Shown here: positions 20,070-61,574 of the stretch, in pieces
How positions within the stretch are numbered: the stretch's first letter is position 1
How the letters are laid out: the number at the start of each line of letters is the position of its first letter
Source: Candidatus Poribacteria bacterium
GTDB lineage: Bacteria > Poribacteria > WGA-4E > WGA-3G
Assembly: GCA_022823085.1 (NCBI GenBank)
Contig: JAJDXV010000098.1
Location: 8,828 to 72,827, forward strand
Direction of reading: 5' to 3'
DNA: 64,000 nt
Made by a program: the position numbers and the translations under genes
The notes under the pieces: model-generated
What the model saw: only the letters and a program-made list of their open reading frames with translations
What the model was told of the DNA's origin: nothing
Database searches by the model: none

Positions 20070-20153
20070 TTAGATTTTGAAAATCCCGTAGTCAAGGCAT
20101 CGCGAATGCGTTTGTTGACTTCGGGTTAATGTGGATTGAATCCACGTCCTTTC

Positions 20154-20191: not shown

Positions 20192-20214
20192 AGTCGGAAG
20201 AAAAATCAAAAGGA

Positions 20215-34815: not shown

Positions 34816-34845
34816 TGGCTCAAAAGGTCCTTAATGCTTAGCAGG

Positions 34846-36505: not shown

Positions 36506-36520
36506 AGCTGCGTCCTTCTT

Positions 36521-45281: not shown

Positions 45282-47121
45282 AGTGCTCCGCTTGTAGGTT
45301 GTATAGTCTGGCGTATAGGCCCTTACGCTTCATCAGTTCGTCATGTGCGCCTTCCTCGATGAGTTTTCCGCCATCAAGCACGAGAATCCTGTCTGCCATG
45401 CGTACAGTTGACATGCGATGCGAAATCAATATGGTTGTTTTATCTTTCGTTAGTTCTTGAAAACGTGCGTAGATTTCGTATTCGCTTCGCACATCCAAGG
45501 CAGCTGTTGGTTCATCAAGGATAAGGATTTGTGCGTTTCGGATAAGGGCACGGGCGATCGCGATTTTTTGCCATTGTCCACCTGAGAGTTCTGTGCCATC
45601 TTCAAACTGACGAGAGAGTATCGTTTCATATCCATTTGGAAGTTGGTCGATGAAATCTGCACCTGCGTCTTTAGCAGCGGCTTTTATGAATCCCATTTGG
45701 GAAAGTTGCGCGACATTGCCGAGACCAATGTTTTCTTGGACGCTGAGTTGATATTTGAGAAAGTCTTGGTCAACAACGCCCATTTGGTGCCGTAAATTGT
45801 CGAGGTTAAAATAGTGGATAGGGGCATCCTCGAGCCTAATTTCACCATCAGTTGGGTCATACATTCGGGTAATCAATTTAACTAGAGTTGTTTTCCCTTC
45901 TCCATTTTTGCCGACGATTGCCACGGTCTCCTTAGGGTGAATATGGAAGGAAACACCATCCAAAATCTTCCGCTCCGTGTTAGGGTATTGAAAGTGGACC
46001 TCTTTGAAGGCAATACCTTTCTCAAGGGATCGTGGGACACGTTTGGCGAATGCTTTCGGGACCATTTTAATCGCTGGCTTCCTTTTCAGAAAATCGTAAA
46101 GATGCGTCAAAAAGCCGCCGATCTGATGCATGAAAGCAAAATTAGCGAGAGATGTGTTCAGCGTCGTCCACGCGAGAATCGTAGCACCACCATAAGCGGT
46201 AAGTTCACCAACACTTACCTCACCACCGATTGTCTGTCGAAAGAGATAGACATAAAGAGCACACAAGCCCACACCACCTAACAGGGCATACAGTGAAAGC
46301 GAACGAAATTCACGCCATCGGACTGACCACAGCACGCTAAGAATGCGTTTAAAAGTACGCACATATTGTCCTAAAAAGAAATCGTGAAGCCCAAAAATAC
46401 GCACATCTTTGGCTGTTTCGTTAAAAAGAAACTGGTTCCTGAAATAGTCGAGTTTTCTGGCTTCTGGTGCCTGAAATTGAATCGCGATTCCAGCAAGATT
46501 GGCGTAACGATATTGCATCAAGGCGTAGGGTAACGCGCATAAAATTAAAAGAATTGGTGCTAACGGGTGAAACAACGAAAGAAACAGAGCAGTTGACAAT
46601 AATTCCCAACAATCTCGACCGGCTTGAAAAGCGTAGATAACTAAGTCAGCACTACTTCGCTCAATATGCCGGACCTGTTGGAGTTGGTCATGGAGTTTTG
46701 GATCTTCAATGTGGGCAAGGTCGGGATGTCGATTCGAAGCTTCCATAACAAGAAGTGTCAAATGACGGCGCATTCTGTCGCCAAGGATGCTTTTAACCGC
46801 AAGGAAAATCGGTCCTGTTGTTTGCAAGACGACGGTGGCAAGTGCTAACACCATCAAGACCGGAGCTACCTCACCGAAGTCCCCCTCGTTTGAACCAGAG
46901 ATAGCGATGACCATGTCAATCACATCTCGGCTCAAGTAGAGAATCAGCACGGGTAGCAAACCTTGGATGAACATTAAGAAAAAAATAAGTAGGGTCTCAA
47001 ATTTTCCGGCGGCCCATATCATTCCGAAAGACCGGAAAATCGCTTTGTAAACCGGACCCCATTCTTTTACAGGTGGATTCCACTGTTCAAGTTTGATATC
47101 AGATGCTTTGTGTTGTTTCAT
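45271..47121 (-). CDS. ABC exporter, fused TMD-NBD half-transporter (likely heterodimer partner)
   Basis: Walker A GKNGEGKTT, signature LSGGQWQKIAIARA, Walker B ILILDEPTAALD. Confidence 0.85.
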   Translation of the reverse strand: MKQHKASDIKLEQWNPPVKEWGPVYKAIFRSFGMIWAAGKFETLLIFFLMFIQGLLPVLILYLSRDVIDMVIAISGSNEGDFGEVAPVLMVLALATVVLQTTGPIFLAVKSILGDRMRRHLTLLVMEASNRHPDLAHIEDPKLHDQLQQVRHIERSSADLVIYAFQAGRDCWELLSTALFLSLFHPLAPILLILCALPYALMQYRYANLAGIAIQFQAPEARKLDYFRNQFLFNETAKDVRIFGLHDFFLGQYVRTFKRILSVLWSVRWREFRSLSLYALLGGVGLCALYVYLFRQTIGGEVSVGELTAYGGATILAWTTLNTSLANFAFMHQIGGFLTHLYDFLKRKPAIKMVPKAFAKRVPRSLEKGIAFKEVHFQYPNTERKILDGVSFHIHPKETVAIVGKNGEGKTTLVKLITRMYDPTDGEIRLEDAPIHYFNLDNLRHQMGVVDQDFLKYQLSVQENIGLGNVAQLSQMGFIKAAAKDAGADFIDQLPNGYETILSRQFEDGTELSGGQWQKIAIARALIRNAQILILDEPTAALDVRSEYEIYARFQELTKDKTTILISHRMSTVRMADRILVLDGGKLIEEGAHDELMKRKGLYARLYNLQAEHYDV

Positions 47122-47139: not shown

Positions 47140-48132
47140 TCAGATGGCATCCTGTTGGTTGATTTCAAGGGCTCGCTGTAATTCGCCACCCCACTGTTGT
47201 AGTGTAGAGTGCACGTAACGCCGTCTCTTAGTATTCCAGCTGGGATGAATATCAACTGTCCATTTCCAGACACAATTTAGAGTCGCAGGAAACGAGCGAA
47301 TCTGGAGATCTATTAAATCTCCTGCTCTAACAGTACAAGGTTTAAGGATTGGGAAAAAAATATTATCCCAACTTAGAACTGGGGATGGCGGTTCGTTGGT
47401 TAACCACGTGTTTTCCGAGAGTTGAGCATTAAACCAGCCACAGAAACCGTGTAACACCCCGTCGTTCTCAATTTGAAAAGTGACTCGTTCGTTCAACATA
47501 GAGTGTTCTGGCATGTTTGCGAAATCAATTGTGTGTAATTGCGCCGGTGCAGATAAGAAGTTGGTTTTATTAAACCGGTTGCTATACACTTCGTTGAGAG
47601 CCGTTTCTCGTGCCAAAGAAAAATCAAGATTATAGAAATCTGAAGACCAGACATCAATGGTGTTGTAAAAATCTGCGTCTTGGATTGGAACAATCGTCAT
47701 TTCCAGCCAAGAGGGCAAGGATTTCCCACCGGGTTTCAGGAATCGTCGCTGGGCATCAGAGATGACATCGACTAAATTTTGACCTACACCAAACTTAGAA
47801 ATCAACTCTGAGATAATTACATCTGCCTTCGTTGGCAGTTCGATCTTCCGAGAATCCTGATTAATAAAAACTACTTGATCCACGAGCCCGTTGGCTTCGG
47901 CGATGGCTTTGGCAATCTCGATAATTTTAGTTCTTTCAATCGCGTAGACCCGCTTTGCTCCGGCTTGACAAGCGAAAAAGGAGAGGACTCCGCTTCCGGC
48001 ACCGATATCTACTACAGTATCCCCTTTTTTTACTGTTTCAAAGATACTCTGACGGTAGCGTTCATTTCGGAGCGTGTCAGCGACTAAGACCCCGTGAAAT
48101 TCTGTGCTATCAAAATCAAAAGACAAAATCAC
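47140..48132 (-). CDS. PRMT-like (protein arginine N-methyltransferase-like) class I SAM-dependent methyltransferase
   Basis: HGVLVADTLRNERYRQSI (PRMT H..ML.D..R...Y), motif I VVDIGAGSGVLSFFACQAGAKRVYAIE, KADVIISELISKFGVGQN (double-E-loop position), then a ~150-aa beta-barrel-sized C-terminal half. Confidence 0.6.
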   Translation of the reverse strand: MILSFDFDSTEFHGVLVADTLRNERYRQSIFETVKKGDTVVDIGAGSGVLSFFACQAGAKRVYAIERTKIIEIAKAIAEANGLVDQVVFINQDSRKIELPTKADVIISELISKFGVGQNLVDVISDAQRRFLKPGGKSLPSWLEMTIVPIQDADFYNTIDVWSSDFYNLDFSLARETALNEVYSNRFNKTNFLSAPAQLHTIDFANMPEHSMLNERVTFQIENDGVLHGFCGWFNAQLSENTWLTNEPPSPVLSWDNIFFPILKPCTVRAGDLIDLQIRSFPATLNCVWKWTVDIHPSWNTKRRRYVHSTLQQWGGELQRALEINQQDAI

Positions 48133-48138
48133 TTCCTC

Positions 48139-49215
48139 CTAATTGAGATGTGATAAAATAATATCAGCTGCAGTTTGAGAGGCATTGTCGTATTGGTAGA
48201 CGGATGCTGCCTCTGCCATCTCTTGCTGCTTTTGCGGTGAACTGAGAATTGATTCAACCAACGCAGCTAACCTGTTTCCAGTAATCTCATCAAAGTCCAC
48301 AGGGGCCGTGATGCCTAATCGTTTCAAATTCATTACATGAAAAGTGTCGACGGCATTACCACCATCTATTATTGAAATCGACGGAACCCCAAATCGTGCG
48401 AGTTCGCAGAGCGTCCCAAACGATCCACGCGTAATAGCGAGCGTACTCACCGCCTGCAAGCGCAGAATGTTCCAATCCCATGACTTGACTACAGCGTACG
48501 GATAGTCTGTTAACTTTTGGCGATAATAATCCGCATCCTCTCCAGCAATTAGGATAAGTCCATATTGCTTTGGGTCAAGTTTCATGTACGTATCGACAGC
48601 AGATGCTAACATCTCTTTGCGTCGGGACTGGCTATTTCCGCCCATACTCACAAAAATTAGCGGTAAATCCGCTGGCACGCCTAATTCTTGCCTTACTGAG
48701 AGTCCCCCATCTTCGAGCGGTTCAGCTGTTCGTAAGATGGGTCCGATAAAAGAGACCGGAACTTTTAGTGTCGGCGGAACAGTATGCCCTGATTCTATAT
48801 CCCGTATTACAATTTCCGTAGCGCAATTGAAAAAACGCGCCAATAAGCCGGTAAATGCTGTCATATCGCCCAACTCCTCAAAAAACCAGTGTGTAATAAG
48901 GACGCTGGGGATATTATATTTTTTTGCTACAGGTAAAGCATAAAAAACTTCATGTGTAACAATAATATCCGGTTCGACTGAAGGGATAATGCTCTGAAGT
49001 GCGCTCAATTCTTTCTGCGTGTACTCATCGTCGAGTTCCATCTCAAGATCCAAGGCACTTCGCCCATTAGACGAGATAGCCTTAAGTCCATCAGCATAAG
49101 AACCGAGGATGATATTTACATCCGGTCGCATGGATTCCAAACGATCTACGACCATTAGATCGGGGATTGCGTGTCCAAAGCCTCGCCCACGTGAAAAATA
49201 GAGAATTTTTGGCAT
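48139..49215 (-). CDS. GT1/GT28-like (MGT/UDP-glycosyltransferase-type) glycosyltransferase
   Basis: From ATG 49215: MPKILYFSRGRGFGHAIPDLMV... and C-terminal ...TRGSFGTLCELARFGVPSISI.... Confidence 0.6.
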   Translation of the reverse strand: MPKILYFSRGRGFGHAIPDLMVVDRLESMRPDVNIILGSYADGLKAISSNGRSALDLEMELDDEYTQKELSALQSIIPSVEPDIIVTHEVFYALPVAKKYNIPSVLITHWFFEELGDMTAFTGLLARFFNCATEIVIRDIESGHTVPPTLKVPVSFIGPILRTAEPLEDGGLSVRQELGVPADLPLIFVSMGGNSQSRRKEMLASAVDTYMKLDPKQYGLILIAGEDADYYRQKLTDYPYAVVKSWDWNILRLQAVSTLAITRGSFGTLCELARFGVPSISIIDGGNAVDTFHVMNLKRLGITAPVDFDEITGNRLAALVESILSSPQKQQEMAEAASVYQYDNASQTAADIILSHLN

Positions 49216-49346: not shown

Positions 49347-50003
49347 TTAAATTCTGCCGAGTCGTCGCTGCTCAATGATGTGTTTTACGCCAACATCAAG
49401 CAGTGCTGTCGGTCCGTTATGTTTCAGACCTTCAATGTACATTTCAACAGGCGCAATTCCCGGATAGATCCGTTCCGCTGTAAAAAGCGCAACAGGGTGC
49501 CCCTTCGCTCTGTCAACTTCGGCTTTCAAGATGGCAACGACCGTTTCCCGTAACAGTGCGGTATTCGTCCAATTCGCTTTAAACACAACTTGACCGTTTC
49601 GGTCAACGATGAAACTCATGTTAGGACCGTACCCATATCGTTTGTGAGCATATTCATCCCATCCATCAACCCATACAGGGCGAGAAATACAATTTTTCGC
49701 CCTGAAGTCAGAGGCACGTTCCATTTTTTCTTCAAAAGAGAAAAGTTCAGGATAATTCTCACCCGGGTGTGCCTCTTTGGTATAGACGAATAACACTTCG
49801 ACCCCTCGATGTTGATAATCCTTATACAGTCGATCCATTGACGGAGACTCCGCCACACAATACGGTCACGTCATACTTCCAAACTCAAGGACAACTAACT
49901 TTCCTCTAAGATCCGACAATTTCACGAATTTATTGTCAGTGTCAGTTGCTTCAAAGGGAGGGGCAGGTCCCAATACATTAATTCTTCTTCTCGGTATGCT
50001 CAT
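49347..50003 (-). CDS. Thioredoxin-fold (AhpC/TSA/redoxin-like) protein with an in-frame TGA at the first position of the redox motif (T-U-P-Y-C); candidate selenoprotein
   Basis: ATG at 50003..50001 opens MSIPRRRINVLGPAPPFEATDTDNKFVKLSDLRGKLVVLEFGSMT-TGA(49868..49866)-PYCVAESPSMDRLYKDYQHRGVEVLFVY.... It is in frame with track ORF 49347..49856, which only starts at a GTG 4 codons after the TGA. Confidence 0.55.
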
Positions 50004-50094: not shown

Positions 50095-52038
50095 TCACTT
50101 GGTTGTGTATCGCCTCAACCAGAGCTCAAGCGATAATGTATTAACCACATTCCCAATTTTTTCCCAGTCCCCGAGCATCCATCGAGAAAGGATCCCTCGC
50201 AAGCGCTCCCGGTTGACGTATCCTCTTTTAACCACCTCAACCGCATCTTGGTCTAACTGCGTTATCAGTTCGGGTAATGCAAGCTTTAACCCCTTCATGG
50301 CATGTCTTCCCAGATTCGGTTGGCTAAGGCGGTTTCGGATCATATCGGGTAGAATACCTTTCATTCCGTTGCGGATGAGGAGTTTCCTTACGATTCTTCC
50401 TTTTGCGTCGACAGTGATTCTATGGTGCATTGGGACACCCATAACATATTCGACAAGCCGTTGGTCAAAGAAAGGCTGACGGATTTCGATATTCAGTGGG
50501 CAGTAGACGACTTGAACCGCCTGACATGAGTTACTTTCACGTAGATACCGATATTCAAGCCGCAGCGATTTTTTATGACAATCTCTATCAGGAATTAAAC
50601 GTCGTATACGCTGGGTAACAGCTTGTTCCCGAGCAAAGCGTTCGTCGAGCCATTCAGGAATCATTGGACCCGTATCTTCTACACCGATATGATTCCAGAA
50701 TTCCAGCGGCTTTCGGATAATTGCGCCCACGAAGGGTTGCATGAAATATGGGATGTGCGGTTTAATCCCAAACTCTGATAATGCATACAGATAAGACATG
50801 TTAGGTGCACGTGCCCATTTCGACAATTCGCCTCTGAGTTTTCTGAACTTTCCATCGCGGAGCAAATCTGCGATATTTAGCGCACTTCCTTGCATAATCT
50901 CGTCGCCCCCGATTCCAGAAAACAGAACAGTTGCTCCAAAATCGTTGGCGGCTTCAGGGGTTAGGTAGTGTTCATGACAAGCGAGATAAACGCCGTAGGG
51001 TTCATCGGGACACGGGTAAGATTCCGTACTTTGCATGAAAAGCCGATCATCCGTCGGGATCCTCCGATTGATGAGATTATACTTCTGTATAACTGATTGC
51101 TGATAGCTTGCTTCGTCTGCTTCTCTAAAGACGTCAAACCCTTTTGATAGCGTAAGCAATTCATTGTTCGGCATCTCGCCGCTTTGATAGATGTCAGCCG
51201 CCATTGAAACAATAGACGAGGAATCTAATCCGCCGCTCAATTCAGAAGCGATGGGTGCTTTATTACGCATCCTGCATTTTACAGCTTCACGAAATGCTTC
51301 CCTGAAGCCGTCAGCATAATCGTCTGGATCGGAATACTGTATTTCTTTTATCCCTGCCGTGGACCAGTATTCAACTGGTTCGGAAATGCCACGCTGATCT
51401 ACCCAAATATAGCAGGCAGGAGGTAGACGCTTAACACCCTTAATTGCTGTGTTTGGCGAATTCAGCGATCCAGTCACCGGATTTAATAGAAAATCTGCCA
51501 TATATTCATTATTGAGTTCCCTTGATATTCGCGGATGCTCATAAAATTGCGCGATTGTCGAGCCAAATATAAGGGTCCGATCAACAAGCGTATAATATAA
51601 AGGTCTCATACCTGCATAATCCCGGGCACAAAACAGGCGTTGTTGTTTTTTGTCCCAGATTGCAAAAGCATAGTCACCGATAATACGTTTTACACAGTCA
51701 GCACCCCACCGTTTATAGGCAGCAAGGATTAACTCAACATCCGTGACAATACGTTCTTTCGCATTAATACCGCAATGCTTGATTAACGCTTCTCGATTAT
51801 CAACGCGTCCGTCAGAAACGATACATAAGGAACCGGATTCGTCTGAAAAGGGCTGATGCTCCCATTGCGATTCCTCTGTTGTATGGAATTGACACTGTCC
51901 CATGCCTATTTGCCTGTCAACGAAATTACTTATTTTCTTGCCGCCTCGCCGAACGCGCGTGACAACCATCATCTTTTGTAATAATTCTTGGTTAACAGGC
52001 GAAGCATCTAAATTAAATAGTCCTGCAAAACCACCCAT
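50095..52038 (-). CDS. Lasso peptide cyclase (asparagine synthetase B-like, C protein)
   Basis: MGGFAGLF... N-terminus without the Cys2 nucleophile. PP-loop SELSGGLDSSSIV. 647 aa, directly downstream of B1/B2. Confidence 0.85.
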   Translation of the reverse strand: MGGFAGLFNLDASPVNQELLQKMMVVTRVRRGGKKISNFVDRQIGMGQCQFHTTEESQWEHQPFSDESGSLCIVSDGRVDNREALIKHCGINAKERIVTDVELILAAYKRWGADCVKRIIGDYAFAIWDKKQQRLFCARDYAGMRPLYYTLVDRTLIFGSTIAQFYEHPRISRELNNEYMADFLLNPVTGSLNSPNTAIKGVKRLPPACYIWVDQRGISEPVEYWSTAGIKEIQYSDPDDYADGFREAFREAVKCRMRNKAPIASELSGGLDSSSIVSMAADIYQSGEMPNNELLTLSKGFDVFREADEASYQQSVIQKYNLINRRIPTDDRLFMQSTESYPCPDEPYGVYLACHEHYLTPEAANDFGATVLFSGIGGDEIMQGSALNIADLLRDGKFRKLRGELSKWARAPNMSYLYALSEFGIKPHIPYFMQPFVGAIIRKPLEFWNHIGVEDTGPMIPEWLDERFAREQAVTQRIRRLIPDRDCHKKSLRLEYRYLRESNSCQAVQVVYCPLNIEIRQPFFDQRLVEYVMGVPMHHRITVDAKGRIVRKLLIRNGMKGILPDMIRNRLSQPNLGRHAMKGLKLALPELITQLDQDAVEVVKRGYVNRERLRGILSRWMLGDWEKIGNVVNTLSLELWLRRYTTK

Positions 52039-52058
52039 ACTTTTAACCCTCCTCGAAC

Positions 52059-52472
52059 CTATTTCACAGAAACCTTCACATATCTTTCTTTAACAATATC
52101 TCCGTCGTTGACAACTCGCCCGTTACATTCAACCCAGGCATGAAAAGTAAGTGGTGGATACTTGCTACATCCCAAACAGAGCTGAGCAGGTATACCTTCG
52201 CGCCGCAGGAGAGAATAGACAACCAGTGATCTTTCCAGACATTCAATTCGACGTCTGATATACAGACGAAATGATTTTTTTGCAATTTTGACGGTTTTGG
52301 AAATCTTTTCCCAATCAACCTCCGCTTCCTGACTTCCCGTTGATTTTTGCCATTTGAGTATGGTTCTGACAACTTGATGAAACCCAAAAGACCACAAACC
52401 AAAGTCAATCAAAAATATCAGGACGTATGCACGAAGAAATGTTGAGCTGTCTCTTATAATCTGTTTAGCCAT
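52059..52472 (-). CDS. Lasso peptide leader peptidase (B2, transglutaminase-like Cys protease)
   Basis: CLERSLVVYSLLRREGIPAQLCLG ... FHAWVECNGRVVND (Cys/His/Asp triad pattern). Confidence 0.85.
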   Translation of the reverse strand: MAKQIIRDSSTFLRAYVLIFLIDFGLWSFGFHQVVRTILKWQKSTGSQEAEVDWEKISKTVKIAKKSFRLYIRRRIECLERSLVVYSLLRREGIPAQLCLGCSKYPPLTFHAWVECNGRVVNDGDIVKERYVKVSVK

Positions 52473-52746
52473 CGGTTATCTCCAGTAAGTTGTTCTCCTG
52501 AAGCGCATTAAACAACGCTATCAAATCCTCTCGGAGCGTTTCCTCAGGGACATCATACTCTGTCTTGAGTTGCTCAAGAATCGGGCCAAGTTTATTTTCT
52601 TCTTCAAGCAAGGAAAAAACGTCTGTTCCGACACTACCGACGCCATAAAAATCGCCCGTTTCAAAATTGAGCAACACCAGATCGTCATCTACGATCGCTT
52701 TTTCAACGTGTTCTGGTATTGTGAAAATCGATGTATCTGTAATCAT
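52465..52746 (-). CDS. Lasso peptide B1 protein (stand-alone PqqD-family RRE)
   Basis: 93 aa, ...AIVDDDLVLLNFETGDFYGVGSVGTDVFSLLEEENKLGPILEQLKTEYDVPEETLREDLIALFNALQENNLL. Overlaps both neighbouring genes. Confidence 0.85.
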   Translation of the reverse strand: MITDTSIFTIPEHVEKAIVDDDLVLLNFETGDFYGVGSVGTDVFSLLEEENKLGPILEQLKTEYDVPEETLREDLIALFNALQENNLLEITDG

Positions 52747-54371
52747 TGTATTACCTCTATATTGTTTGGGATTGGTTTAGTCAACCGAGAAGAACTTTGC
52801 ACAACAATTCCTTCTCGCAGCAGGTTCCGAAGTGATGCCTTTATTTCCGCTTCAGATCCAACGTCGGCTAACGCCGAGATAAGCGTTTGCGTTTTGATAG
52901 CATCAGAAGCATCCAAATACTGAATAATCGCTTTTTCAGCGTCGTCAATTTCGTAAGTCCGTGCCCACACAGGATCTTGCATCTCTATTGCATGAGCCTT
53001 TACATGATAAAAAAGCGTCCCGAGGGACAAGATATTTTCCGCGCAAAGTTCTTCGGTAACGTATCCTGAACTATAGGGGAGAATTATTTTTGAGTAAAAC
53101 TCATAGTTTTGCTTGGTGTATCGAGGTCTCCTCGTGATCAGAGAAGTAATAGCACCTTCATTTTCTCGGTCGTATTGTGCGTTCATGAGGGCGTATTTCA
53201 AACCAAATCGGCTCATCTGGTTTCCATCCGTCGAATGCTTTGAGGTCTTCAAACAACCATCAACAATAGCGCACAATTTCTGTTCAAAGCGACGACGACT
53301 AAATTTTGACAGGACAGTCCGACGTGCTGCATCTCCTATCTCTTCTCTCTCTTCTCTTGACGCAATGAGTCTCGCAGAGTAATGAAGCACCGAGTGTAAA
53401 TCCACGCGGATACCCCAGTCGGTTACAAAGGTATCGACCTGAAATCCAGTTTTTCCGTGCTCAATGGTATCCTTCAAACCACCCCAACTTGTACCTATGA
53501 CAGGCGTGCCACAACTCATTGCTTCAACTTGGGTTAAACCAAAGTTCTCATCGTGATGTATCGTCAGATTCATGAATACATCGGCAATATTGTAAAGAAT
53601 CGGAAGCGCCTCTTGGTCGATATATGGAAGCATTCTGACCCGTTCTTTTACGTCACGGTTCTCGTCCAATAATTTGGAAAAGAGTACATCCAACGCATTG
53701 GGACCCGATTCAAATTCCTCAAATTTAACATCATCAATAGGTCCGACGATTAGCAGTCGGACATTCGGATACAGCTTTACTAATTTTTTGAAGACGGACA
53801 AGATGGAATGGACATTTTTTTCAGAAGTTATACGACCCACATACAAAAACACGACATCATCAGGATCAAAGCCGAAGTGTTTACGATATTCTTCCTGCTG
53901 CTCGGTAGAGAGAGGGCTAAGCATCTGCTCATCAGCAAAGAAGGGTAACATCGTTTCCGTCGCCGCACATTGGTCCGACATGAGGTGATAAATTTCCCGA
54001 TCCGCCGCACATGAAAACGCAATAGCATCGCCGGGCTGAAAATGAAAGAACGTACGTCTAAAATTGTAGGCACCCCGAGGGAACTCACCTAGCGGGAGGT
54101 ACACGACAGGTTGATCCAACGCAAGTTCCTCGCGGAAAACAAAAAATTCCGGCAGATCCCGATTGACGATGAGATCGCATTCCTTTAAAAAGGCTTTTCC
54201 GATCTCCTCACGCTGTTTAACATCCAGAAATGGATAATATACAGGCAAACGTCTCACCGTGTAATGTTTACTGAGGATCTTCTCAATTTCCGAGAAGACG
54301 ACTCTTAGACTTGAACCTGGAGATTCAGTTATCGTGTGGCGTGTTAGTCCAATTATTGGTTTAGTATCCAT
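52743..54371 (-). CDS. GT4-family glycosyltransferase with a C-terminal RRE/wHTH-like extension
   Basis: ENFGLTQVEAMSCGTPVIGTSWGGLKDTIEHGKTGF. The C-terminal ~90 aa, ...WARTYEIDDAEKAIIQYLDASDAIKTQTLISALADVGSEAEIKASLRNLLREGIVV, has the beta-beta-helix pattern of PqqD-like domains. ATG at 54371 lies behind GAAGGAAG. Confidence 0.65.
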   Translation of the reverse strand: MDTKPIIGLTRHTITESPGSSLRVVFSEIEKILSKHYTVRRLPVYYPFLDVKQREEIGKAFLKECDLIVNRDLPEFFVFREELALDQPVVYLPLGEFPRGAYNFRRTFFHFQPGDAIAFSCAADREIYHLMSDQCAATETMLPFFADEQMLSPLSTEQQEEYRKHFGFDPDDVVFLYVGRITSEKNVHSILSVFKKLVKLYPNVRLLIVGPIDDVKFEEFESGPNALDVLFSKLLDENRDVKERVRMLPYIDQEALPILYNIADVFMNLTIHHDENFGLTQVEAMSCGTPVIGTSWGGLKDTIEHGKTGFQVDTFVTDWGIRVDLHSVLHYSARLIASREEREEIGDAARRTVLSKFSRRRFEQKLCAIVDGCLKTSKHSTDGNQMSRFGLKYALMNAQYDRENEGAITSLITRRPRYTKQNYEFYSKIILPYSSGYVTEELCAENILSLGTLFYHVKAHAIEMQDPVWARTYEIDDAEKAIIQYLDASDAIKTQTLISALADVGSEAEIKASLRNLLREGIVVQSSSRLTKPIPNNIEVIQ

Positions 54372-54523
54372 CTTGTCTTCCTTCAAGTGTATAAACAGTA
54401 GTCGGGCAGCCTACGGCTTTCCCAATATCCAATAAAATTTGGATTGCTTGATGTCCGAGTTTTCAATGATAGAACTCTATCGGACATTCGTAAAAAAAAC
54501 GTGGGTGTATCGAAATAGCCTTT

Positions 54524-54670
54524 CTAACAATTGGTGTTTGCATGGGTTCGCCCACCACTGGAATCATATACAGTAGGAGTAGAACCTTTAACAAGGGTTC
54601 TGGCATTGCCATACTTGACAACCCGTGGTGCCGTGTAGGCTTTCTTCTTGGATTTCAACACCTTACGCAT
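54524..54670 (-). CDS. Lasso precursor peptide A
   Basis: GGAGG RBS. MRKVLKSKKKAYTAPRVVKYGNARTLVK/GSTPTVYDSSGGRTHANTNC. The leader fits YxxPxLxxxG; the predicted core has Gly1 and Asp8. Confidence 0.8.
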   Translation of the reverse strand: MRKVLKSKKKAYTAPRVVKYGNARTLVKGSTPTVYDSSGGRTHANTNC

Positions 54671-54812
54671 TGTTGTTATACCTCCTGGAATATATCAATT
54701 CAAATTAACGCTCACTTGACTTAAGCACTTAGCACATAAGTATCACTTTCAGAAACTGATTTGCCCTTCTGATTGTTCTTAGGCAAACACGGAACTACAA
54801 AATTTACTACAA

Positions 54813-55028
54813 TCAAGCCAAAATGTCGTGGACAACATGAACTTGAACACCAGTAAGACGGAAGTCCCGACCTTGGAAACGGTAGGTTAGCTTCTCGTAG
54901 TCAATGGAAAATAAATGCAACATTTTGGCGTGTAAATCGTGGACATACACAATATCTTCCACGGCGTTATATCCAAGTTCATCAGTTTTGCCGTGACTCA
55001 CACCGCCTTTGATGCCCCCGCCGGCTAA
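54813..55028 (-). pseudogene. 3' fragment of a DUF1501-type (sulfatase-like) gene
   Basis: [61 protein letters not shown]... is the characteristic C-terminal ~70 aa of DUF1501 proteins. It is preceded by a stop and has no N-terminal part. Confidence 0.6.
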
Positions 55029-55151
55029 CTATATTGAGAATCCACGGATGTCTTGTTTCTCATCAAATCAAATATTTAAGCGACGCTCCGGGCACAATGT
55101 TGGAGTGCCTTTTCTGTTTGACAACAATCAAACAGAAAAGGCATCTCTTAT

Positions 55152-55298
55152 GTTAACAGTTCGGTGGGCAATACTTTCTACCGCCACCTGTCTCATACTG
55201 ACAAGTGCTACTCCCTTTAACTAGAATAGTGGCATTGCCATATCTAACTAACCGGGGTGCTTCGTAGGTTTTCTTTTCAGGCTTCAGCATCTTACGCA
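55152..55298 (-). CDS. Lasso precursor peptide B
   Basis: AAAGGAGGTG RBS. MRKMLKPEKKTYEAPRLVRYGNATILVK/GSSTCQYETGGGRKYCPPNC. Confidence 0.8.
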
Positions 55299-55370
55299 TC
55301 GTTTTCACCTCCTTTCATATATTAATTTAGACACTCGACTGAAAAGTCGCATTCCACTCGTTACTGAGTG

Positions 55371-55511
55371 TTAACAGTTATGGTTTCTACGAGTACATGA
55401 GCCATCATAGAGTGGGCTTCCACCACTTTTTACGAGCACCGTGGCGTTGCCGTAACTGACTAACCGGGGTGCTTCGTAGGTTTTCTTTTCAGGCTTCAGC
55501 ATCTTACGCAT
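55371..55511 (-). CDS. Lasso precursor peptide C
   Basis: Identical RBS and leader DNA to B. MRKMLKPEKKTYEAPRLVSYGNATVLVK/SGGSPLYDGSCTRRNHNC. Confidence 0.75.
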   Translation of the reverse strand: MRKMLKPEKKTYEAPRLVSYGNATVLVKSGGSPLYDGSCTRRNHNC

Positions 55512-55581
55512 CGTTTTCACCTCCTTTCATATATTAATTTAGATATGCGACGAAAAGGTCGCAAACCACTTATTAGAAACA

Positions 55582-55709
55582 TTAGGTGTTATTCCGAGCA
55601 CTTGATTCATACTGAACAATGCCAGAGCCTTTGATTAACGCGGTAGCATTGCCGTAGCTAACTGAGATACTTGATAGTCTTTCTTTGTTGACTTTAACAT
55701 CTTACGCAT
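55582..55709 (-). pseudogene. Decayed lasso precursor copy D
   Basis: No RBS. MRKMLKSTKKDYQVSQL, then a 4-nt deletion relative to its siblings. The shifted frame still reads YGNATALIK/GSGIVQYESSARNNT*. Confidence 0.65.
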
Positions 55710-55776
55710 TTTTTCTTTTTTCAAACTTTAATTTGCAAACATGACTGAAAAATCGAAAAACACTCGCTACCGAGTA

Positions 55777-55917
55777 TTAGTAATTAGAGTTTTTGCGAGT
55801 ACCTCCGCAATCAAGATTTTTGGTTCCACCATTTTTTATGAGCACCATGGCATTGCCGTAGCTGACCAACTGAGGTGTTTCGTAGGTTTTCTTTCCAGAT
55901 ATGAACATCTTACGCAT
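55777..55917 (-). CDS. Lasso precursor peptide E
   Basis: AAAGGA RBS. MRKMFISGKKTYETPQLVSYGNAMVLIK/NGGTKNLDCGGTRKNSNY. Confidence 0.7.
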   Translation of the reverse strand: MRKMFISGKKTYETPQLVSYGNAMVLIKNGGTKNLDCGGTRKNSNY

Positions 55918-56015
55918 TGTTTCTCACATCCTTTCATATCTAATTTAAAACTTGTTTGCGGTGTTAGGATCTGCGATCTACCTATTACAAACATTACTGA
56001 CACGGCTTGCTTTCT

Positions 56016-56053
56016 ATACTTAAGGACACAATTTCAGATTGAAAAGGATGCAG
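56016..56053 (-). promoter_or_regulatory. Conserved promoter-like motif, copy 7
   Basis: Minus strand CTGCATCCTTTTCAATCTGAAATTGTGTCCTTAAGTAT, ~100 nt upstream of precursor E. Confidence 0.5.
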
Positions 56054-56090: not shown

Positions 56091-56798
56091 CTATACGCTC
56101 CTCAAAGCTTCAAAATCGGCGTTAAAGAAGTTGCTGGATTCATAGGAGAGTGGGTGCCCAACGGATTTCACTTCTTGAATCTGTATTTCTATACCATAAT
56201 CTATCATCCGCTGGAGGGCATTTGTGAGCTGATATTTTCCATTTCGGAGGTGTCCTGCCTGAATCAACTCATCCAGACACGCAAAGAGCAATTTGCTTTC
56301 TCGAATGAAATAACATCCTGCAATCACTAAGTCTGTCCGTCTCGGTTTATGAATTAAGCATCCAACGATGCCATCTCTGAGTTCGACTAAACCGTAAGGT
56401 TTCTCATCAACGATACGCCGGACAGCAATTGTTGAGCACTGACTTTGCGTAAACGCTGTCCAGTTCAGATTTACGCCTGCTTCCGCCTCGACGATGAGCA
56501 GCGGTTCCTCAGAGATATGATTACTGGCTAACGAAATCGAGTGCCCTAATCCTTTTTCTTCCGTCTGTTCAATGAAAGAAGCCGTCATCTCACTATAGTT
56601 AGCCTCCATATAGGCTTGAATCGGGTTGGTTGGATAATCGGTGATAAATATAAACTCAGACACCGGCAGTTTGCACAAGGGTTGAATCAAATGTGTAAGA
56701 GTCGGGCGCCCCTTGTATTGAGGTAGCGGGTCAGAGATCCGATCTGTATGTGGTACGAACGGCGATGTGTTTTCTGTAAATGGAAAGATTACTTTCAT
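56091..56798 (-). CDS. Sugar-phosphate nucleotidyltransferase-like protein
   Basis: ...KGRPTLTHLIQPL...EKGLGHSISLA...EKPYGLVEL.DG.V..LIHKP...VIAGCYF...GKYQLTNALQRMIDYG... (NTP_transferase pattern). Confidence 0.55.
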   Translation of the reverse strand: MKVIFPFTENTSPFVPHTDRISDPLPQYKGRPTLTHLIQPLCKLPVSEFIFITDYPTNPIQAYMEANYSEMTASFIEQTEEKGLGHSISLASNHISEEPLLIVEAEAGVNLNWTAFTQSQCSTIAVRRIVDEKPYGLVELRDGIVGCLIHKPRRTDLVIAGCYFIRESKLLFACLDELIQAGHLRNGKYQLTNALQRMIDYGIEIQIQEVKSVGHPLSYESSNFFNADFEALRSV

Positions 56799-56821: not shown

Positions 56822-57451
56822 TTACGCGCCTCCACGACACTTAAGAGTTTCATACTGAAGATAAGGTTGCAGCTTATCGCGGAGTTTCCGGTGTGCTTGA
56901 TATAAGTGGGTTTTAATGGTTCCTTCGGCCTTGCTCAAGCGCGAGGCAATCTCTTTTATCTTGAGTCCATCTTGGTAGCGGAGATTAAAAACGCGACGTT
57001 GGATGGGGGATAATCGACGCACGGCCACGCTCAAGAGGTGGTTGAATTCCTCCTTTTCAAGGATTTCATCGGGCGATGCGTGCGTCCCATCAATTTGAAG
57101 CCCATCCGCTACGGTCTCGGGTAACTCTGCGACTCCAAAAACGATTTCTCGCTTTTGTCTGCGGAGGAAATCAAGGCTACAATTGATAGCAATTCGGTGG
57201 AGCCAACTGTAAAATGCGGCACCTCTTCTAAAATTCGGTAGTGCCTGCCAGGCCTTAAGGAATACTTCTTGACAGAGATCTTCTGCTGTTTCAGAGTGGC
57301 GAACCCGCTTGTAAATCAAATTATAGATTCTTTGTTGGTATCTACACACAATTGGATTAAACGCCTGTGTATCGCCATTCTGGGTCCGCTGAATGAGCTC
57401 GGTGTCACTTAGAGCGTTGAACGAGTCACGCGTCGTTAATACCTCTTTCAT
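56822..57451 (-). CDS. ECF-type sigma-70 family factor
   Basis: From ATG 57451 (AAGGAG RBS): ...FNPIVCRYQQRIYNLIYKRVRHSETAEDLCQEVFLKAWQAL... (region 2) and ...LRYQDGLKIKEIASRLSKAEGTIKTHLYQAHRKLR (region 4). Confidence 0.85.
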   Translation of the reverse strand: MKEVLTTRDSFNALSDTELIQRTQNGDTQAFNPIVCRYQQRIYNLIYKRVRHSETAEDLCQEVFLKAWQALPNFRRGAAFYSWLHRIAINCSLDFLRRQKREIVFGVAELPETVADGLQIDGTHASPDEILEKEEFNHLLSVAVRRLSPIQRRVFNLRYQDGLKIKEIASRLSKAEGTIKTHLYQAHRKLRDKLQPYLQYETLKCRGGA

Positions 57452-57487
57452 GTTTTGCTCCTTAGATGATGCTATTCTTATCCTTTT

Positions 57488-57525
57488 ATAATTAATGACA
57501 CAATCTTGAAGGGAAAAGGGTGCAT
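57488..57525 (-). promoter_or_regulatory. Conserved promoter-like motif, copy 8
   Basis: Minus strand ATGCACCCTTTTCCCTTCAAGATTGTGTCATTAATTAT, ~40 nt upstream of the ECF sigma start. Confidence 0.5.
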
Positions 57526-57799
57526 GCGGTGGAAAATGGATGCGATGTGCTCGGATCCACGGGTGGGCTTGCGGAGTAGATGGGGTTCCTAAAGGACGGG
57601 GTTTCCACACCGAAGAATTTGATAGATAAAAGGGTGGTATCTGATACACCGGGGATATAATAGCAATGCAAGTCAAGCGCGAGAAGCTGCGATCAAGCGG
57701 ATCTTGGTCGAGGTCGGCATCTGTTAGCACTGACAGAGCAGGGGTCGCGAACGGGCATAAGAGTATTGAGGGTAAATCAGATTTGACCTATTTCAATTC

Positions 57800-57985
57800 C
57801 TTTCTGCCTTTTCGTCCTCATAAGCGGCGTTGATGGGTACGAGGATGTCTTGGCAGAACTCTTCAGCGAGGATGGCGTTGATTTCTGCGGTGACCTACCA
57901 CCTTTTTTGATACACTGCGAGGGAGGCGTGTTCAAGGAATCGTTATAGGACGATGTAGGATTGTATTCTTTCTATGGATGTGATT
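57800..57985 (-). pseudogene. Rep gene remnant (3' end), interrupted by IS3 sequence
   Basis: DNA is alignable with 7360-7540. The translation ...RIQSYIVL*..VTAEINAILAEEFCQDILVPINAAYEDEKAE compares with Rep ...RIQSYIVRQRL...MVTAEINAILAAEFCQDLIAPVQTAYEDEKEK. Confidence 0.7.
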
Positions 57986-58341
57986 CCGCTTGTCGATAGA
58001 TAGGCCTTTGAAAGATACTGTACACCTTGATCGGAATGATGTATCTCAGGGACGCTTCGGTGTAATGCTGCTTCCAGGGGTTTCAACGTCAGCGGTTGCA
58101 TCAGATGTTGACTGAGCTGCCACGCTCTAATCATCCGAGTGAAGACATCCATGAGTAGAAAAACATAGACGAAGCGTCCCTTGAGACGCACATAGGTAAT
58201 ATCAGACACCCAGACCTGATCCTGATGAGAGACATTAAGGGTTTCAAGACGGTTACGCCAAGGCTTCTCTCCCTGAAGCGATGTTGTTGTTTGACAGGCA
58301 CGCTTGACGGCGACCAACAGATTATGGGTTTGTACTGCCAT
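57986..58341 (-). pseudogene. IS3-family OrfB (rve/DDE integrase core) fragment, 5'-truncated
   Basis: ...DQVWVSDITYVRLKGRFVYVFLLMDVFTRMIRAWQLS...VPEIHHSDQGVQYLSKAYL. Its 5' end abuts the left end of the oppositely oriented IS3 copy. Confidence 0.7.
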
Positions 58342-58405
58342 CGGAAATTAGGGCCACCCCCTAAACCAAGATTGTATAATACAATCTCACTGAAAGGAGC
58401 ATCCG

Positions 58406-58690
58406 ATGGCGAAACGAAAACGAAGAAACTTCACCCCCGAGTTTAAAGCGGCGGTCGTTCTGGAGGCCCTCCGCGGTGAAAGTTCCCAAGCAGAACTGTG
58501 TCGTCGACACAACCTCAGCGATGACCAACTCTCGAAGTGGAAGCAGCAGTTTCTTGAAAATGCAGCGTCTCTCTTTGCATCGAACGATAAGGCATCTGAA
58601 GATGCTGCGGAACGCATCGCGCACCTTGAGCAGCTCGTTGGGCGGTTGACTGTGGCCCTGGACATCGAAAAAAAGCCTCAACCTGGTTGA
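58406..58690 (+). CDS. IS3-family transposase OrfA (HTH)
   Basis: 94 aa, classic IS3/IS911 OrfA N-terminus. Confidence 0.8.
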   Translation: MAKRKRRNFTPEFKAAVVLEALRGESSQAELCRRHNLSDDQLSKWKQQFLENAASLFASNDKASEDAAERIAHLEQLVGRLTVALDIEKKPQPG

Positions 58691-59438
58691 ACTGACCTCG
58701 GCTGAGAAGCGAAACCTCGTAGAGGCGTTGCGGGACGATTATTCAGTTCGAGAGATTTGCGAGACACTCGGTTTCCACCGGAGCCTTCTCTATTATCCCC
58801 GAAAAGCGACCCTTCTCAAAAGGTGCTTGAAGCGGAAATAGAGCAGTTATGTGCGCGGTATCCGACATAGGGGTATAGGCGTATCACCCACTTGCTGGTA
58901 AATGCGGGATACACGGTTGGGTATCGCCGTGTTGCCCGATTGCTGAAAGAAAAGCATCTCTGGGTTTCCGGTAAACGGGGTGCCTGTCAAACCACGAGAT
59001 CGCTTGAAGGGGCAAGGTTTCCGTGGGTCAATCGACTTGAAGCTCTTGACATCTGCAGACGCGATCAGGTCTGGGTTGGCGATATTACCTACGTCCGTCT
59101 GAAAAGACGCTTCGTCTGTGTTTTCTACTCATGGATGTCTTCAGTCGCATGATAAAAGAGTGGAAACTCAGTCAACATTGAAACCGCTCCAAGAAGCGTT
59201 GTGCCAAAGCGTCCCGGAGATCCACCATTCCGATCAAGGCGCGCAGTATCTTTCAAGTGCTTATATTTCCACCCTCACGCGTCATGGGATTGAGATTTCA
59301 TTAGCACAGAGAGGCTGCCCTTGGGAGAACGGATATGCTGAACGCCTCATCCGCACGCTCAAGGAAAAAGAAGTTTACCTCAATGCATATGAGGACATTC
59401 ACGAAGTGAGAGTCCGCATTGGTCGTTTTATCACATAG
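58690..59438 (+). pseudogene. IS3-family transposase OrfB, broken by stops/frameshifts
   Basis: The reading frame must be switched at least twice (a TAG after ...CARYPT, and a shift near 59120-59150). Confidence 0.7.
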
Positions 59439-59722: not shown

Positions 59723-61507
59723 ATGAACATCCGCGTCGGTAACTTATCTTATAAAGCCACGGAAAAAGAACTTGAAGAACTTTTTAGTAAATACGGAAGA
59801 GTGGTCGAGGTTACAATTAATCGTCATCAAAGCGGTCGCTACAAAGGTCAATCGAACGGGACAGGTTTTGTGAGGATGGAGAACCAAGAAGAAAGTAAGC
59901 AAGCAATAAAAGCGTTGGATGGGCACATGCTGAGGAAACGGCCGCTAGCGTGTCAGGACGAGAAAGAGCATTTCTTCCACAATCCGTACACCTTTGTTCC
60001 GACCCCTCCGCGTCCGTTAAGTTGTATGTGTGCTGGTGATTTCGCTGGCGACTTCAACCCATTAAAGCATCCATGCGGGGAAGAACACAATCTATGCCAT
60101 GCATCTCTCAAGAAGCATCTCTGGACAGGACATATCCCGATTAAACTGACCGCTGTCACACCCATCGTCTTACTTAAGAATGATGGCACGGAACGGGATT
60201 CAAAGGAACACCAGGTTTATGATGTACACGACCACATTCCAGCACCCTCGTTACGTGGTATATTGCGTAGTGCCTACGAAGTGGTGACAAACTCGCGCTA
60301 CGGGTGTTTTGATACAGATCAATCGAAACAATTGCGCTCCCTTGACGAATCGCTGAGACCAGCAGAAAATATGGATCAACTGTCACCTGCGGATCGCTTG
60401 TTCGGGTGGACCCCACAAGGACAACAAGTTCATGGTGGTTATAAGGGCCGGATACGCGTTATCTGCGAAGAGGTGGTTTCTGCGAACGCTGCTCGTAAAG
60501 ACGAGGAGAAACCAGAAATCATCAAACGCTTTGAAGGCGGAGACCTCCCTCTGACAATCCTAAGTGCCCCGAAACCCTCCTATGCCCGTTTTTATGTCGC
60601 TAAAGATAAGCAAGGAACACCACAGTATGATGGGATTCCAAAAAAAGAAATTGCCTATGAGGGTTTACGAGGTCGAAAGCAATATTGGCATCATAGAGGT
60701 TTGGAAATAGACCCATCCAAAAGCGAACACGATCAGGAACAGGCGACAGCATATTGGCATCCATCTGTTGAAGATCGCACGCAGATTAAGCATAACGATC
60801 GGTATCAAGAATACCGCCGACCTGATGGGCATCGTAAAGGTCAAAATCCAAGTAGGGAAGATCAGAATCCAAGTGGTTGGCAGCAAAAGAACAAAGACAA
60901 CCGCTCTATTAAAGGGTGGATTCCGCCTGGTACTGTGTTTAAAGCGAGTTTGTACGTGCAAAATCTGGAATCTACAGAGGTTGGGGCTCTGCTTTGGCTC
61001 CTATCACTTAACGAGAAAAAATGTAAGGCAGATGACAAGCATTACTTTCGGATTGGGTACGGCAAGCCTTTAGGTTTCGGCAGTGTAACGATGGAAATTG
61101 ATGAAGATCGATGCCTAGATGGGTATCTGCCACTCAGCACCGGCAAAGATTTGGAAAATTACTACGCGTCCTTTGACGCGGATATGTCTTCATTGGCAAA
61201 GTTAGATCAGAACCAACGGAGTTGTTGTATTCAGAAATTTAAGACCAGTATGGAGCAAACCTACCCTGATAGAGGATCTTTTGACAAGCTTCTGTTCATT
61301 GAGAGATTTCTACAGGTTCTACGCGGTCCGAAAACAGATCTCTCGATTCACTATCCGCGGCTAACTTGTAAACCAAGTACGGCGGGTCAGAACTTTGACT
61401 GGTTTAATGTGAATGACGATAAAAACAAAGAAAAGGAAGGTCTAAAACTTTCACTACCATATGTAACCGAGAAAAAAGGACTGCCCTATAATCCACACAA
61501 AAAGTGA
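59723..61507 (+). CDS. RRM-domain fusion to a large RAMP-superfamily (Cas7/TIGR03986-like) protein
   Basis: Residues 1-~80 are an RRM (RNP2 IRVGNL, RNP1 NGTGFVRM, AIKALDGHMLRKRPL). Then come FFHNPYTFVP, IPAPSLRGILRSAYEVV, ADRLFGW, YKGRIRV and a C-terminal Gly-loop IGYGKPLGFGSV. Confidence 0.7.
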   Translation: MNIRVGNLSYKATEKELEELFSKYGRVVEVTINRHQSGRYKGQSNGTGFVRMENQEESKQAIKALDGHMLRKRPLACQDEKEHFFHNPYTFVPTPPRPLSCMCAGDFAGDFNPLKHPCGEEHNLCHASLKKHLWTGHIPIKLTAVTPIVLLKNDGTERDSKEHQVYDVHDHIPAPSLRGILRSAYEVVTNSRYGCFDTDQSKQLRSLDESLRPAENMDQLSPADRLFGWTPQGQQVHGGYKGRIRVICEEVVSANAARKDEEKPEIIKRFEGGDLPLTILSAPKPSYARFYVAKDKQGTPQYDGIPKKEIAYEGLRGRKQYWHHRGLEIDPSKSEHDQEQATAYWHPSVEDRTQIKHNDRYQEYRRPDGHRKGQNPSREDQNPSGWQQKNKDNRSIKGWIPPGTVFKASLYVQNLESTEVGALLWLLSLNEKKCKADDKHYFRIGYGKPLGFGSVTMEIDEDRCLDGYLPLSTGKDLENYYASFDADMSSLAKLDQNQRSCCIQKFKTSMEQTYPDRGSFDKLLFIERFLQVLRGPKTDLSIHYPRLTCKPSTAGQNFDWFNVNDDKNKEKEGLKLSLPYVTEKKGLPYNPHKK

Positions 61508-61574
61508 AGCGCAGATGTTTGCTACCCACGTAAGCAATATGAAGAGAATCTTCATGTCTAAAAGGAGGAACAAG

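Follow-up and report, generated by a model that had tools for sequence, protein, structure and literature searches.

A probable split-B lasso peptide cluster with four intact precursor genes and candidate tailoring enzymes in a Candidatus Poribacteria contig

Can one maturation enzyme set serve several different lasso peptide precursors, and what would the enzymes encoded around it add to the products? Lasso peptides are stable scaffolds and of interest as drug leads. The question is raised by a locus on contig JAJDXV010000098.1 of a Candidatus Poribacteria bacterium, of which a stretch of 64,000 nucleotides (hereafter the window) was analysed. On its minus strand, five short precursor units (E, D, C, B and A, in this order) are followed by a gene for a family 4 glycosyltransferase (GT4) and by the genes B1, B2 and C for a putative leader-binding protein, a leader peptidase and a lasso cyclase. 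Taken as a whole, the locus is best explained as a real lasso peptide cluster of the split-B (B1/B2) type with ordinary core machinery, a reading to which a probability of about 0.8 is given. The coordinates of all features are compiled in Table 1.

The precursor units were located with a repeat finder and a search for open reading frames (ORFs). Four of them contain intact ORFs and one, D, is decayed, as the original prediction for this locus had it, and the four core sequences quoted there agree exactly with the ORF translations. As a tandem, the array is interrupted, A being parted from the rest: the spacing is about 200-212 nt within B-E and 629 nt from A to B. Between units, the leaders share 68-89% and the cores 38-67% of their DNA sequence. 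The leaders of B and C are 89% identical, with 6 synonymous and 2 non-synonymous codon differences, and their cores only 49%. A conserved leader joined to a freely diverging core is the usual signature of precursors of peptides synthesised ribosomally and modified post-translationally (RiPPs). The leader motif YxxPxL, originally ascribed to all units, holds for B, C and E; A reads YTAPRV (YxxPxV) and D reads YQVSQL, with Ser in place of Pro. D has further lost 4 nt relative to the other copies, which shifts its frame, and its Shine-Dalgarno sequence is degraded to GAAAAAAG where GAAAGGAGG is expected. Precursor E has its own GGA(T)G ribosome-binding site, and a terminator-like hairpin lies at this gene (55778-55759). 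Counted from the Tyr at -17, cleavage is predicted after Lys28; residue -2 is then Val in A, B and C and Ile in D and E, and position 8 is Asp or Glu in every core. Five residues beyond this ring acceptor an Arg or Lys is nearly invariant, and a C-terminal Asn-(Cys/Ser/Tyr/Thr) motif is nearly universal. Cysteines are found in the ring (Cys5) and tail (Cys16, Cys20) of the B core and at positions 11 and 18 of the C core. A, B, C and E each match the NCBIfam lasso leader and precursor models NF033521, NF033528 and NF033534 weakly (E 0.001-0.01), the best such match of precursor E being NF033528 (lasso_cyano, E 0.001).

A failure of B1, B2 and C to match lasso profiles had been named beforehand as the refuting outcome; all three match. 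The best NCBIfam matches of B1 are lasso PqqD chaperone models. B2 also matches PF13471 (75.6 bits), and its catalytic motifs could be read directly as ECLERS...FHAWVE...D. The cyclase C combines an Asn_synthase domain (PF00733, 128 bits) with a GATase domain and has the PP-loop SGGLDSS, which is invariant among its relatives. GT4, B1, B2 and C follow one another as originally claimed, closely packed with overlaps of 4 and 8 nt and one gap of 20 nt at their junctions.

Several observations weigh against a lasso cluster. The precursor matches are all below the cut-offs of their models. On NF033535 (lass_lactam_cya, lasso isopeptide-forming cyclase), C reaches 391.5 bits, which is below the curated cut-off of 525, and its best-scoring stretch spans model positions 1-420 of 668. 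None of the leaders has Thr at the penultimate position (-2), and no characterised precedent for the Asn1 of precursor E was found in the literature consulted. Judged by its score, C is related to, but outside, the NF033535 subfamily. The missing Thr does not exclude membership of the lasso class, because Ile or Val at -2 is a documented functional variant, experimentally validated in Bradymonas and called there rare but not uncommon (PMC10368454). As to the first core residue, Glu and Phe were first reported only in 2026 (PMC13632552); because no characterised precedent was found for Asn1, precursor E may escape processing or be cut at a different position. The overall resemblance is more than chance, since conserved leaders go together with divergent cores, lasso models are matched independently by each peptide and the same leader recurs at the loci of relatives.

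These relatives form a small clade, almost only from metagenome assemblies, whose cyclases are 43-94% identical to C before identity drops to 35% or less. In two scans of the GTDB species representatives, no cyclase among the matches listed exceeded 39% best-segment identity, or about 34% near full length. Nine related loci were compared (L001-L010 apart from fragments). All nine have B1, B2 and C in this order, followed by two ATP-binding cassette (ABC) genes where the contig continues, and all loci in which the sequence upstream of B1 was recovered have precursors of the same type. The clade leader consensus is [Y]xxPx[LV]xx[FY]GNAxxLV. As in the window, the Tyr at -17 is followed by Asp or Glu at core position 8 or 9 and by Arg or Lys five residues on, and the first core residue may be G, S, A, T, N or E.

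Published characterised clusters in which one enzyme set serves two or three precursors, with the caulosegnins as an example, are cited in PMC13632552. The original prediction had called five precursors for one enzyme set unusual. This stands for the four intact genes as a difference of degree, not of kind, because published clusters share one set among two or three precursors. With clusters of the caulosegnin or palassoptide type, in which ring sizes of 8 and 9 can coexist (PMC13352647, PMC13632552), the locus has in common several precursors whose leaders are conserved and whose cores diverge, and one enzyme set that would mature them; it differs from them in its four intact copies and one dead copy, a block-acquired array, split B1 and B2, extra tailoring genes and Val or Ile at -2. 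The bsf cluster of Bradymonas is likewise of the split-B type and keeps YxxPxL, and BsfA has Ile at -2 in place of Thr (PMC10368454). Unlike the window, where no kinase is present and -2 is Val or Ile, bsf has kinase tailoring and a single precursor type.

The origin of the array could be traced by comparison with the related locus L001. Window and L001 are colinear only from 55051 to 43463, with 90-91% DNA identity. Further upstream, L001 continues into a DUF1501 gene, which is full length and split into two reading-frame pieces, whereas the window has a hairpin, the units B-E and different genes. The similarity ends just downstream (on the coding strand) of the perfect 16-bp inverted repeat, next to what is left of the DUF1501 gene. 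The ortholog of A is the only precursor on the available stretch of L001. Since L001 carries the DUF1501 gene in place of the hairpin and B-E, A is, on this alignment, the ancestral precursor and B-E a secondary acquisition, brought in as a block by a rearrangement that truncated the DUF1501 gene.

Such a history invites the explanation that A is the only real substrate and that B-E are decaying passenger DNA from the rearrangement, unmatured by this enzyme set. It would account for the absence of B-E from the available stretch of the 90-91% identical L001, for the gene remnant and strong hairpin that part them from A, for the pseudogene D and for the singleton status of B, C and E at 90% identity among about 15 billion proteins. 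A promoter upstream of the array was not detected: a promoter-like motif had originally been placed at 56016-56053, and the upstream region holds 7 sigma-70-like sites, against 4.1 +/- 2.5 expected from shuffles, but the proposed motif is not among them, so that a sigma-70 promoter at this position is not supported. Passenger DNA is nevertheless an unlikely explanation given the state of the genes themselves. B, C and E retain intact ORFs with strong GGAGG ribosome-binding sites, they keep all leader residues shared by the clade (Y, P, L, YGNA and L-V/I-K) and Asp or Glu at position 8, and the mainly synonymous leader differences between B and C beside freely diverging cores are the pattern of selected RiPP precursors. 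As a separate observation, ORF fragments resembling IS3-type transposases, judged from translations only, lie on both strands at 57943-59438 between the gene for an extracytoplasmic function (ECF) sigma factor and the RRM-RAMP genes; they would fit a rearrangement-prone region.

If B-E are substrates together with A, a pathway can be proposed in which leader binding, cleavage, ring closure and export are inferred from family knowledge. Each precursor would be translated from its own strong Shine-Dalgarno site. B1 would bind the leader motif YxxPx(L/V)xxYGNA and B2 would cut after Lys28, with Val or Ile at -2. C would then activate the Asp8 or Glu8 side chain by adenylation and join it to the new N-terminus (Gly or Ser, in E Asn), yielding an 8-residue ring threaded by a tail of 10-12 residues. 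A candidate steric plug is the Arg or Lys that stands five residues beyond the ring acceptor. Up to four cores would thus be served by one enzyme set, A as the original one and B-E having arrived together with compatible leaders, and the products would leave through the ABC pair. For lasso forms free of other modifications, the calculated monoisotopic masses are 2005.855 (A), 2088.845 (B), 1904.801 (C) and 1879.860 (E), less 2.016 for each disulfide. Four natural cores with one shared leader represent a ready-made panel on the tolerance of the cyclase, Asn1 included.

The second part of the question concerns the enzymes that might modify these peptides. The GT4 ORF comprises 547 amino acids, probably 542 with a start at 54371, and its family consists of proteins of about 520-560 amino acids with a conserved C-terminal extension. 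In the PDB, the neighbours of the AlphaFold2 model (predicted local distance difference test, pLDDT, 93.7) are the retaining GT4 enzymes MshA, BshA and PimB'. The C-terminal 163 residues modelled alone (pLDDT 87.6) consist of four strands followed by three helices and one more strand. A RiPP recognition element (RRE) has a three-stranded sheet followed by three helices. A Foldseek search with the C-terminal domain returned RRE-containing RiPP enzymes as 14 of its 20 top PDB neighbours, namely TbtB, TbiB1 with leader, NisB, TruD, ThcOx, MibB, CteB, LynD, McbB and the lasso B1 protein 6jx3. With lasso B1 proteins, the TM-score (target-normalised) is 0.54-0.59 and the Foldseek probability 0.66-0.97, the top matches reaching up to 1.0. 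The E-values of the RRE-like matches, 0.04-0.6, and a negative hhalign comparison of the domain with a B1 profile speak against the assignment. Because of these weak E-values and the negative profile-profile comparison, the model-based assignment of the domain as an RRE is rated no higher than likely.

Homologs of this GT4 are found in other RiPP clusters, one of them (38% identical) directly after the PqqD gene of another lasso cluster (L093), the other (36% identical) in a class I lanthipeptide cluster (L094), where it neighbours LanC and LanB. For GT2 enzymes (PF00535), RRE fusions were recorded bioinformatically in 2025 (PMC12710340), and no mention of GT4-RRE fusions was found in the literature searched. 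The occurrence of a GT4-RRE-like family in lasso and lanthipeptide clusters suggests a portable, leader-directed peptide glycosyltransferase. In the cluster described here, GT4 would probably glycosylate the leader-bearing precursor, guided by its own RRE-like domain, and the C-terminal Asn-(Cys/Ser/Tyr/Thr) is a candidate site.

Alternatively, the glycosyltransferases and sugar-activation genes could serve a neighbouring pathway for cell-surface polysaccharides and leave the peptides unglycosylated. GT4 enzymes mostly take non-peptide acceptors, BshA, MshA and PimB' being the closest structures here, and further GT4 modules lie in the window far from the cluster. Orthology of GT4 across the sister loci was rejected: the sister-locus enzymes are paralogs of 25-30% identity only, a further point against a role on the peptides. 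A polysaccharide pathway is all the same improbable in view of the position of the gene, which is flanked by precursor A and B1 and has an overlap of 4 nt, the RRE-like domain of its product, relatives inside two RiPP clusters of different classes and the presence of at least one GT4 in every clade locus with enough flanking sequence.

Peptide glycosylation in lasso clusters has precedents in the davasins (IgtG) and in pseudomycoidin, where a cluster-encoded glycosyltransferase likewise modifies a residue with a hydroxyl group in the tail or close to it (PMC11912497, PMC6993621). IgtG, according to its report the only glycosyltransferase of this kind to be encoded in a lasso cluster, modifies the mature lasso (PMC11912497), whereas the RRE-like domain fused to the window GT4 suggests that this enzyme works on the linear precursor in a leader-dependent way. 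Also unlike these systems, the window adds a second GT-B enzyme and sugar-activation genes.

A gene for a thioredoxin-fold oxidoreductase, which follows C, is interrupted by an in-frame TGA at codon 46. Its closest solved structures are ResA-type thiol-disulfide oxidoreductases and the nearest NCBIfam model is the deiodinase family NF038285. The window shares this TGA with L001 and L002, the cyclases of these three loci being 63-94% identical, and the homologs of L004 and L008 have TGT (Cys) at this site, the first Cys of CPYC within T-C-P-Y-C. Between the window and L002, 13 synonymous and 16 non-synonymous differences were counted in the 45 codons before the TGA, and 51 and 52 in the 164 codons after it; the two parts are therefore under similar coding constraint. 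When 1.84 billion representatives were searched, 81 of the 119 best family representatives with a downstream EAHPG motif proved to begin just after the position of the putative selenocysteine (Sec, U), and CxxC occurs in only 8 of the best 150. Most database members of the family start at the Met just past the redox motif, which suggests, as far as these sequences tell, a widespread mis-annotation of selenoproteins as shortened ORFs.

Two results count against a selenoprotein. A hairpin of 6-7 bp (GGCGGAG/CUCCGUC), considered as a selenocysteine insertion sequence (SECIS), begins 11 nt past the UGA and is kept in three loci, with a folding energy not distinguishable from shuffles and without covariation, and the 64-kb window shows nothing of the Sec machinery. 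Together with the shortened products of the gene callers (163-164 amino acids in L001 and L002), they would fit a genuine stop codon, the gene being a pseudogene or two separate small ORFs. In view of the recurrence of the TGA at one and the same codon in these three loci, its exact coincidence with the TGT of two further homologs and the like counts of changes on its two sides, a genuine stop is very improbable. From the aligned codons, the gene probably encodes a selenoprotein.

By inspection, the N-terminus lacks a signal-peptide-like hydrophobic stretch, and the protein is therefore probably cytoplasmic. A link to disulfide chemistry is suggested by the cores: those of the window, L001, L002, L004 and L008, which have this gene and the methyltransferase described below, contain Cys, whereas those of L003, L005 and L007, which lack both genes, are Cys-free. 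This link is perfect in the sampled loci, although the loci amount to about two independent clades, which lessens its weight. How disulfides form in lasso peptides is unknown according to a 2026 review (PMC13352647). As in the lasso peptides of class III (BI-32169) and class IV (pandonodin, LP2006), the placement of Cys in the window cores B and C permits ring-tail or tail-tail disulfides; unlike them, the window clade encodes its own thioredoxin-fold UxxC/CxxC enzyme. The cytoplasmic UxxC enzyme might form or isomerise disulfides or protect the thiols of core cysteines. The co-occurrence of a cluster-encoded thioredoxin-fold Sec/Cys enzyme with Cys-containing cores provides a testable lead on disulfide formation.

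The third candidate is a methyltransferase with the fold of protein arginine methyltransferases (PRMTs). Its top PDB matches are all eukaryotic PRMTs (PRMT2, CARM1, PRMT6; E about 1e-33) and cover the Rossmann and beta-barrel domains. In PRMTs, the two Glu residues of the double-E loop hold the guanidinium group. Here the loop reads SELISKFGVGQN, with Gln for the second Glu (SELISKFGxGQN in the clade), and the THW loop is replaced by SWD (SWDN); both SWD and Gln are invariant in five clade members, and many other bacterial homologs with locatable motifs keep E...E and THW. The enzyme thus resembles the eukaryotic type I PRMTs (PRMT1, PRMT2, PRMT6, CARM1) over its whole length and differs from them in both signatures, and its relative in locus L091 accompanies cores without Arg or Lys.

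Of the 94 related loci fetched, 21 have a PRMT-fold gene next to their lasso cyclase; among these 21 are genomes from Terriglobia, Pyrinomonadaceae, Vicinamibacterales, Rokubacteria and Binataceae. Most of these genomes have another variant signature, DQIGxFGFEAG with INRRN, and cores that mostly end in -CL. In eight loci from metagenome-assembled genomes of Terriglobia, Vicinamibacterales, Rokubacteria and Binataceae (L012, L013, L017, L026, L030, L031, L033 and L073), a gene of this DQIGxFGFEAG/INRRN type stands directly after the cyclase, the leaders are canonical LT(-2)x leaders and the cores end in Cys-Leu (...MMMMCL, ...NSPCL). No published description of this recurrent pairing was found. 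L091 (9338-13305), a further lasso-like locus, has a methyltransferase of the SWDN type with two identical cores, GISYNPLDGISNLTP, as well as a sulfotransferase, 2-oxoglutarate (2OG)-Fe oxygenases and a protein whose P-loop motif resembles, by eye, that of HPr-kinase-like lasso kinases; a B2 gene was not called there.

Methylation of the conserved core Arg was considered as a general function of the enzyme and rejected. Arginine is an unlikely general target, as read from the sequences, because the double-E and THW signatures are lost, the core Arg is conserved in sister loci without the methyltransferase, and the L091 cores are free of Arg and Lys. The PRMT-fold enzyme would instead methylate something other than arginine. 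A full-text search for lasso peptide together with arginine methyltransferase found no description of a PRMT-type enzyme in lasso clusters, and the list of lasso modifications in a 2026 review contains none (PMC13352647).

When these predictions are combined, the locus would encode a small lasso library with S- or O-glycosylation of a C-terminal Cys, Ser or Tyr by the RRE-GT4 enzyme, non-arginine methylation by the PRMT-fold enzyme and disulfide formation or isomerisation by a selenocysteine oxidoreductase. This full combination is tentative and, with all its parts together, doubtful. If true, it would be a chemistry undescribed for the class and the first enzymatic answer to how disulfides are installed in lasso peptides. 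The GT4-RRE-like protein, the altered PRMT-fold enzyme and the likely Sec enzyme were not found described for lasso peptides in the literature searched, and altered PRMT-fold enzymes beside lasso cyclases recur across uncultured lineages, including Acidobacteriota and Rokubacteria.

Table 1. Features of the lasso peptide locus and its flanks, in window positions, with the evidence for each
Feature	Position	Strand	Evidence and remarks
Sugar-1-phosphate nucleotidylyltransferase + phosphogluco/mannomutase	39815-41991	-	Same strand, genes overlap
MacB_PCD/FtsX permease	42132-43433	-	Orthologs in L002, L003, L005, L007 and L009
Two ABC half-transporters	43452-47121	-	Overlapping genes; profile match
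PRMT-fold S-adenosylmethionine (SAM) methyltransferase, non-canonical active site	47140-48126	-	PF22528 + PF17286
GT-B glycosyltransferase, MurG/MGT type	48139-49215	-	Glyco_tran_28_C; profile match
Thioredoxin-fold (ResA- or deiodinase-like) oxidoreductase, putative selenoprotein	49347-50003	-	In-frame TGA 49866-49868; predicted FGSMT-U-PYC
C, ATP-dependent lasso cyclase	50095-52038	-	Best model NF033535, E 8e-117
B2, transglutaminase-like leader peptidase	52059-52472	-	NF033537, 78.4 bits (cut-off 33)
B1, putative PqqD-type leader-binding protein	52465-52746	-	PF05402, 51.4 bits (cut-off 23.4)
GT4 glycosyltransferase, C-terminal RRE-like domain (residues ~450-535)	52743-54371	-	Pfam Glycos_transf_1, 111 bits
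Precursor A	54524-54670	-	48 aa; core GSTPTVYDSSGGRTHANTNC; ORF + weak lasso hidden Markov model (HMM) match
DUF1501 gene remnant	54813-55051	-	62-aa ORF 54813-55001; aligns to C-terminus of L001 DUF1501
Perfect 16-bp inverted repeat, 6-nt loop	55106-55143	.	Junction of B-E array and ancestral locus
Precursor B	55153-55299	-	48 aa; core GSSTCQYETGGGRKYCPPNC; ORF + weak lasso HMM match
Precursor C	55371-55511	-	46 aa; core SGGSPLYDGSCTRRNHNC; ORF + weak lasso HMM match
Precursor D, pseudogene	55582-55709	-	Reconstructed core GSGIVQYESSARNNT; frameshift
Precursor E	55777-55917	-	46 aa; leader MRKMFISGKKTYETPQLVSYGNAMVLIK, core NGGTKNLDCGGTRKNSNY; ORF
NTP-transferase-like gene	56091-56798	-	Upstream of array; profile match
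ECF sigma factor	56822-57730	-	Upstream of array; true start uncertain; profile match

The cluster is about three times as long as the original prediction, which covered the precursors to the cyclase, had it, and forms a same-strand string from about 39.8 to 56 kb. The ABC pair, with orthologs of 71-75% identity after C in related loci where the contig continues, probably has an exporter and immunity function. Orthologs of the MacB-like permease are 44-46% identical in L002, L003, L005 and L007, and 38% identical over a partial match in L009. The MurG/MGT-type glycosyltransferase gene is present in L001 and as a remnant only in L002. The nucleotidylyltransferase and mutase pair would supply an activated sugar, and past a gap beyond the phosphogluco/mannomutase gene two more GT4 genes follow. 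ECF sigma genes upstream of the precursors are also found in L002 and L005.

The clade falls into two subgroups. In one (window, L001, L002, L004 and L008), the thioredoxin-fold gene occurs together with the methyltransferase; the other (L003, L005, L007 and L009) is without both and has a MacB-like gene and other GT4s instead. The clusters of L003, L005 and L007 each have two such other GT4s, and their precursors (L003 8421-8627 and 8777-8995, L005 8580-8765, L007 8859-9050) are free of Cys and have long Asn-rich tails, for example (NGNNN)n, with a Ser at the end.

The lasso cluster may lie on a plasmid. The contig that carries the window has 94,429 bp. On the minus strand at 7338-8657, the window encodes a replication initiator of the Rep3 plasmid type (Rep3_N + Rep3_C, with about 35% identity to plasmid Rep proteins of Rhodobacteraceae), a 21-nt tandem repeat of 4.9 copies at 592-695 could represent iterons, and a Rep3 gene likewise lies upstream of the cluster in L007. 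A PLSDB search returned distant matches only, and neither tRNA genes nor Rfam matches were found in the window.

Further genes of the window deserve a short description. On the plus strand, two adjacent ORFs (59723-61507 and 61515-63023) have an N-terminal RRM_1 domain, the first being fused to a RAMP-superfamily domain like those of type III clustered regularly interspaced short palindromic repeats (CRISPR) systems; no CRISPR-like array turned up in a tandem-repeat scan of the window. On the minus strand, two similar modules (14584-21360 and 33679-38266) each combine a GT4 of about 580 amino acids with a peptidase_A24-like membrane protein of about 380 amino acids, the former module additionally encoding a transglutaminase-like protein of 541 amino acids. 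Also on the minus strand, a protein of 986 amino acids (27941-30901) has an N-terminal ECF sigma part (regions 2 and 4) fused to BNR/sortilin-type repeats.

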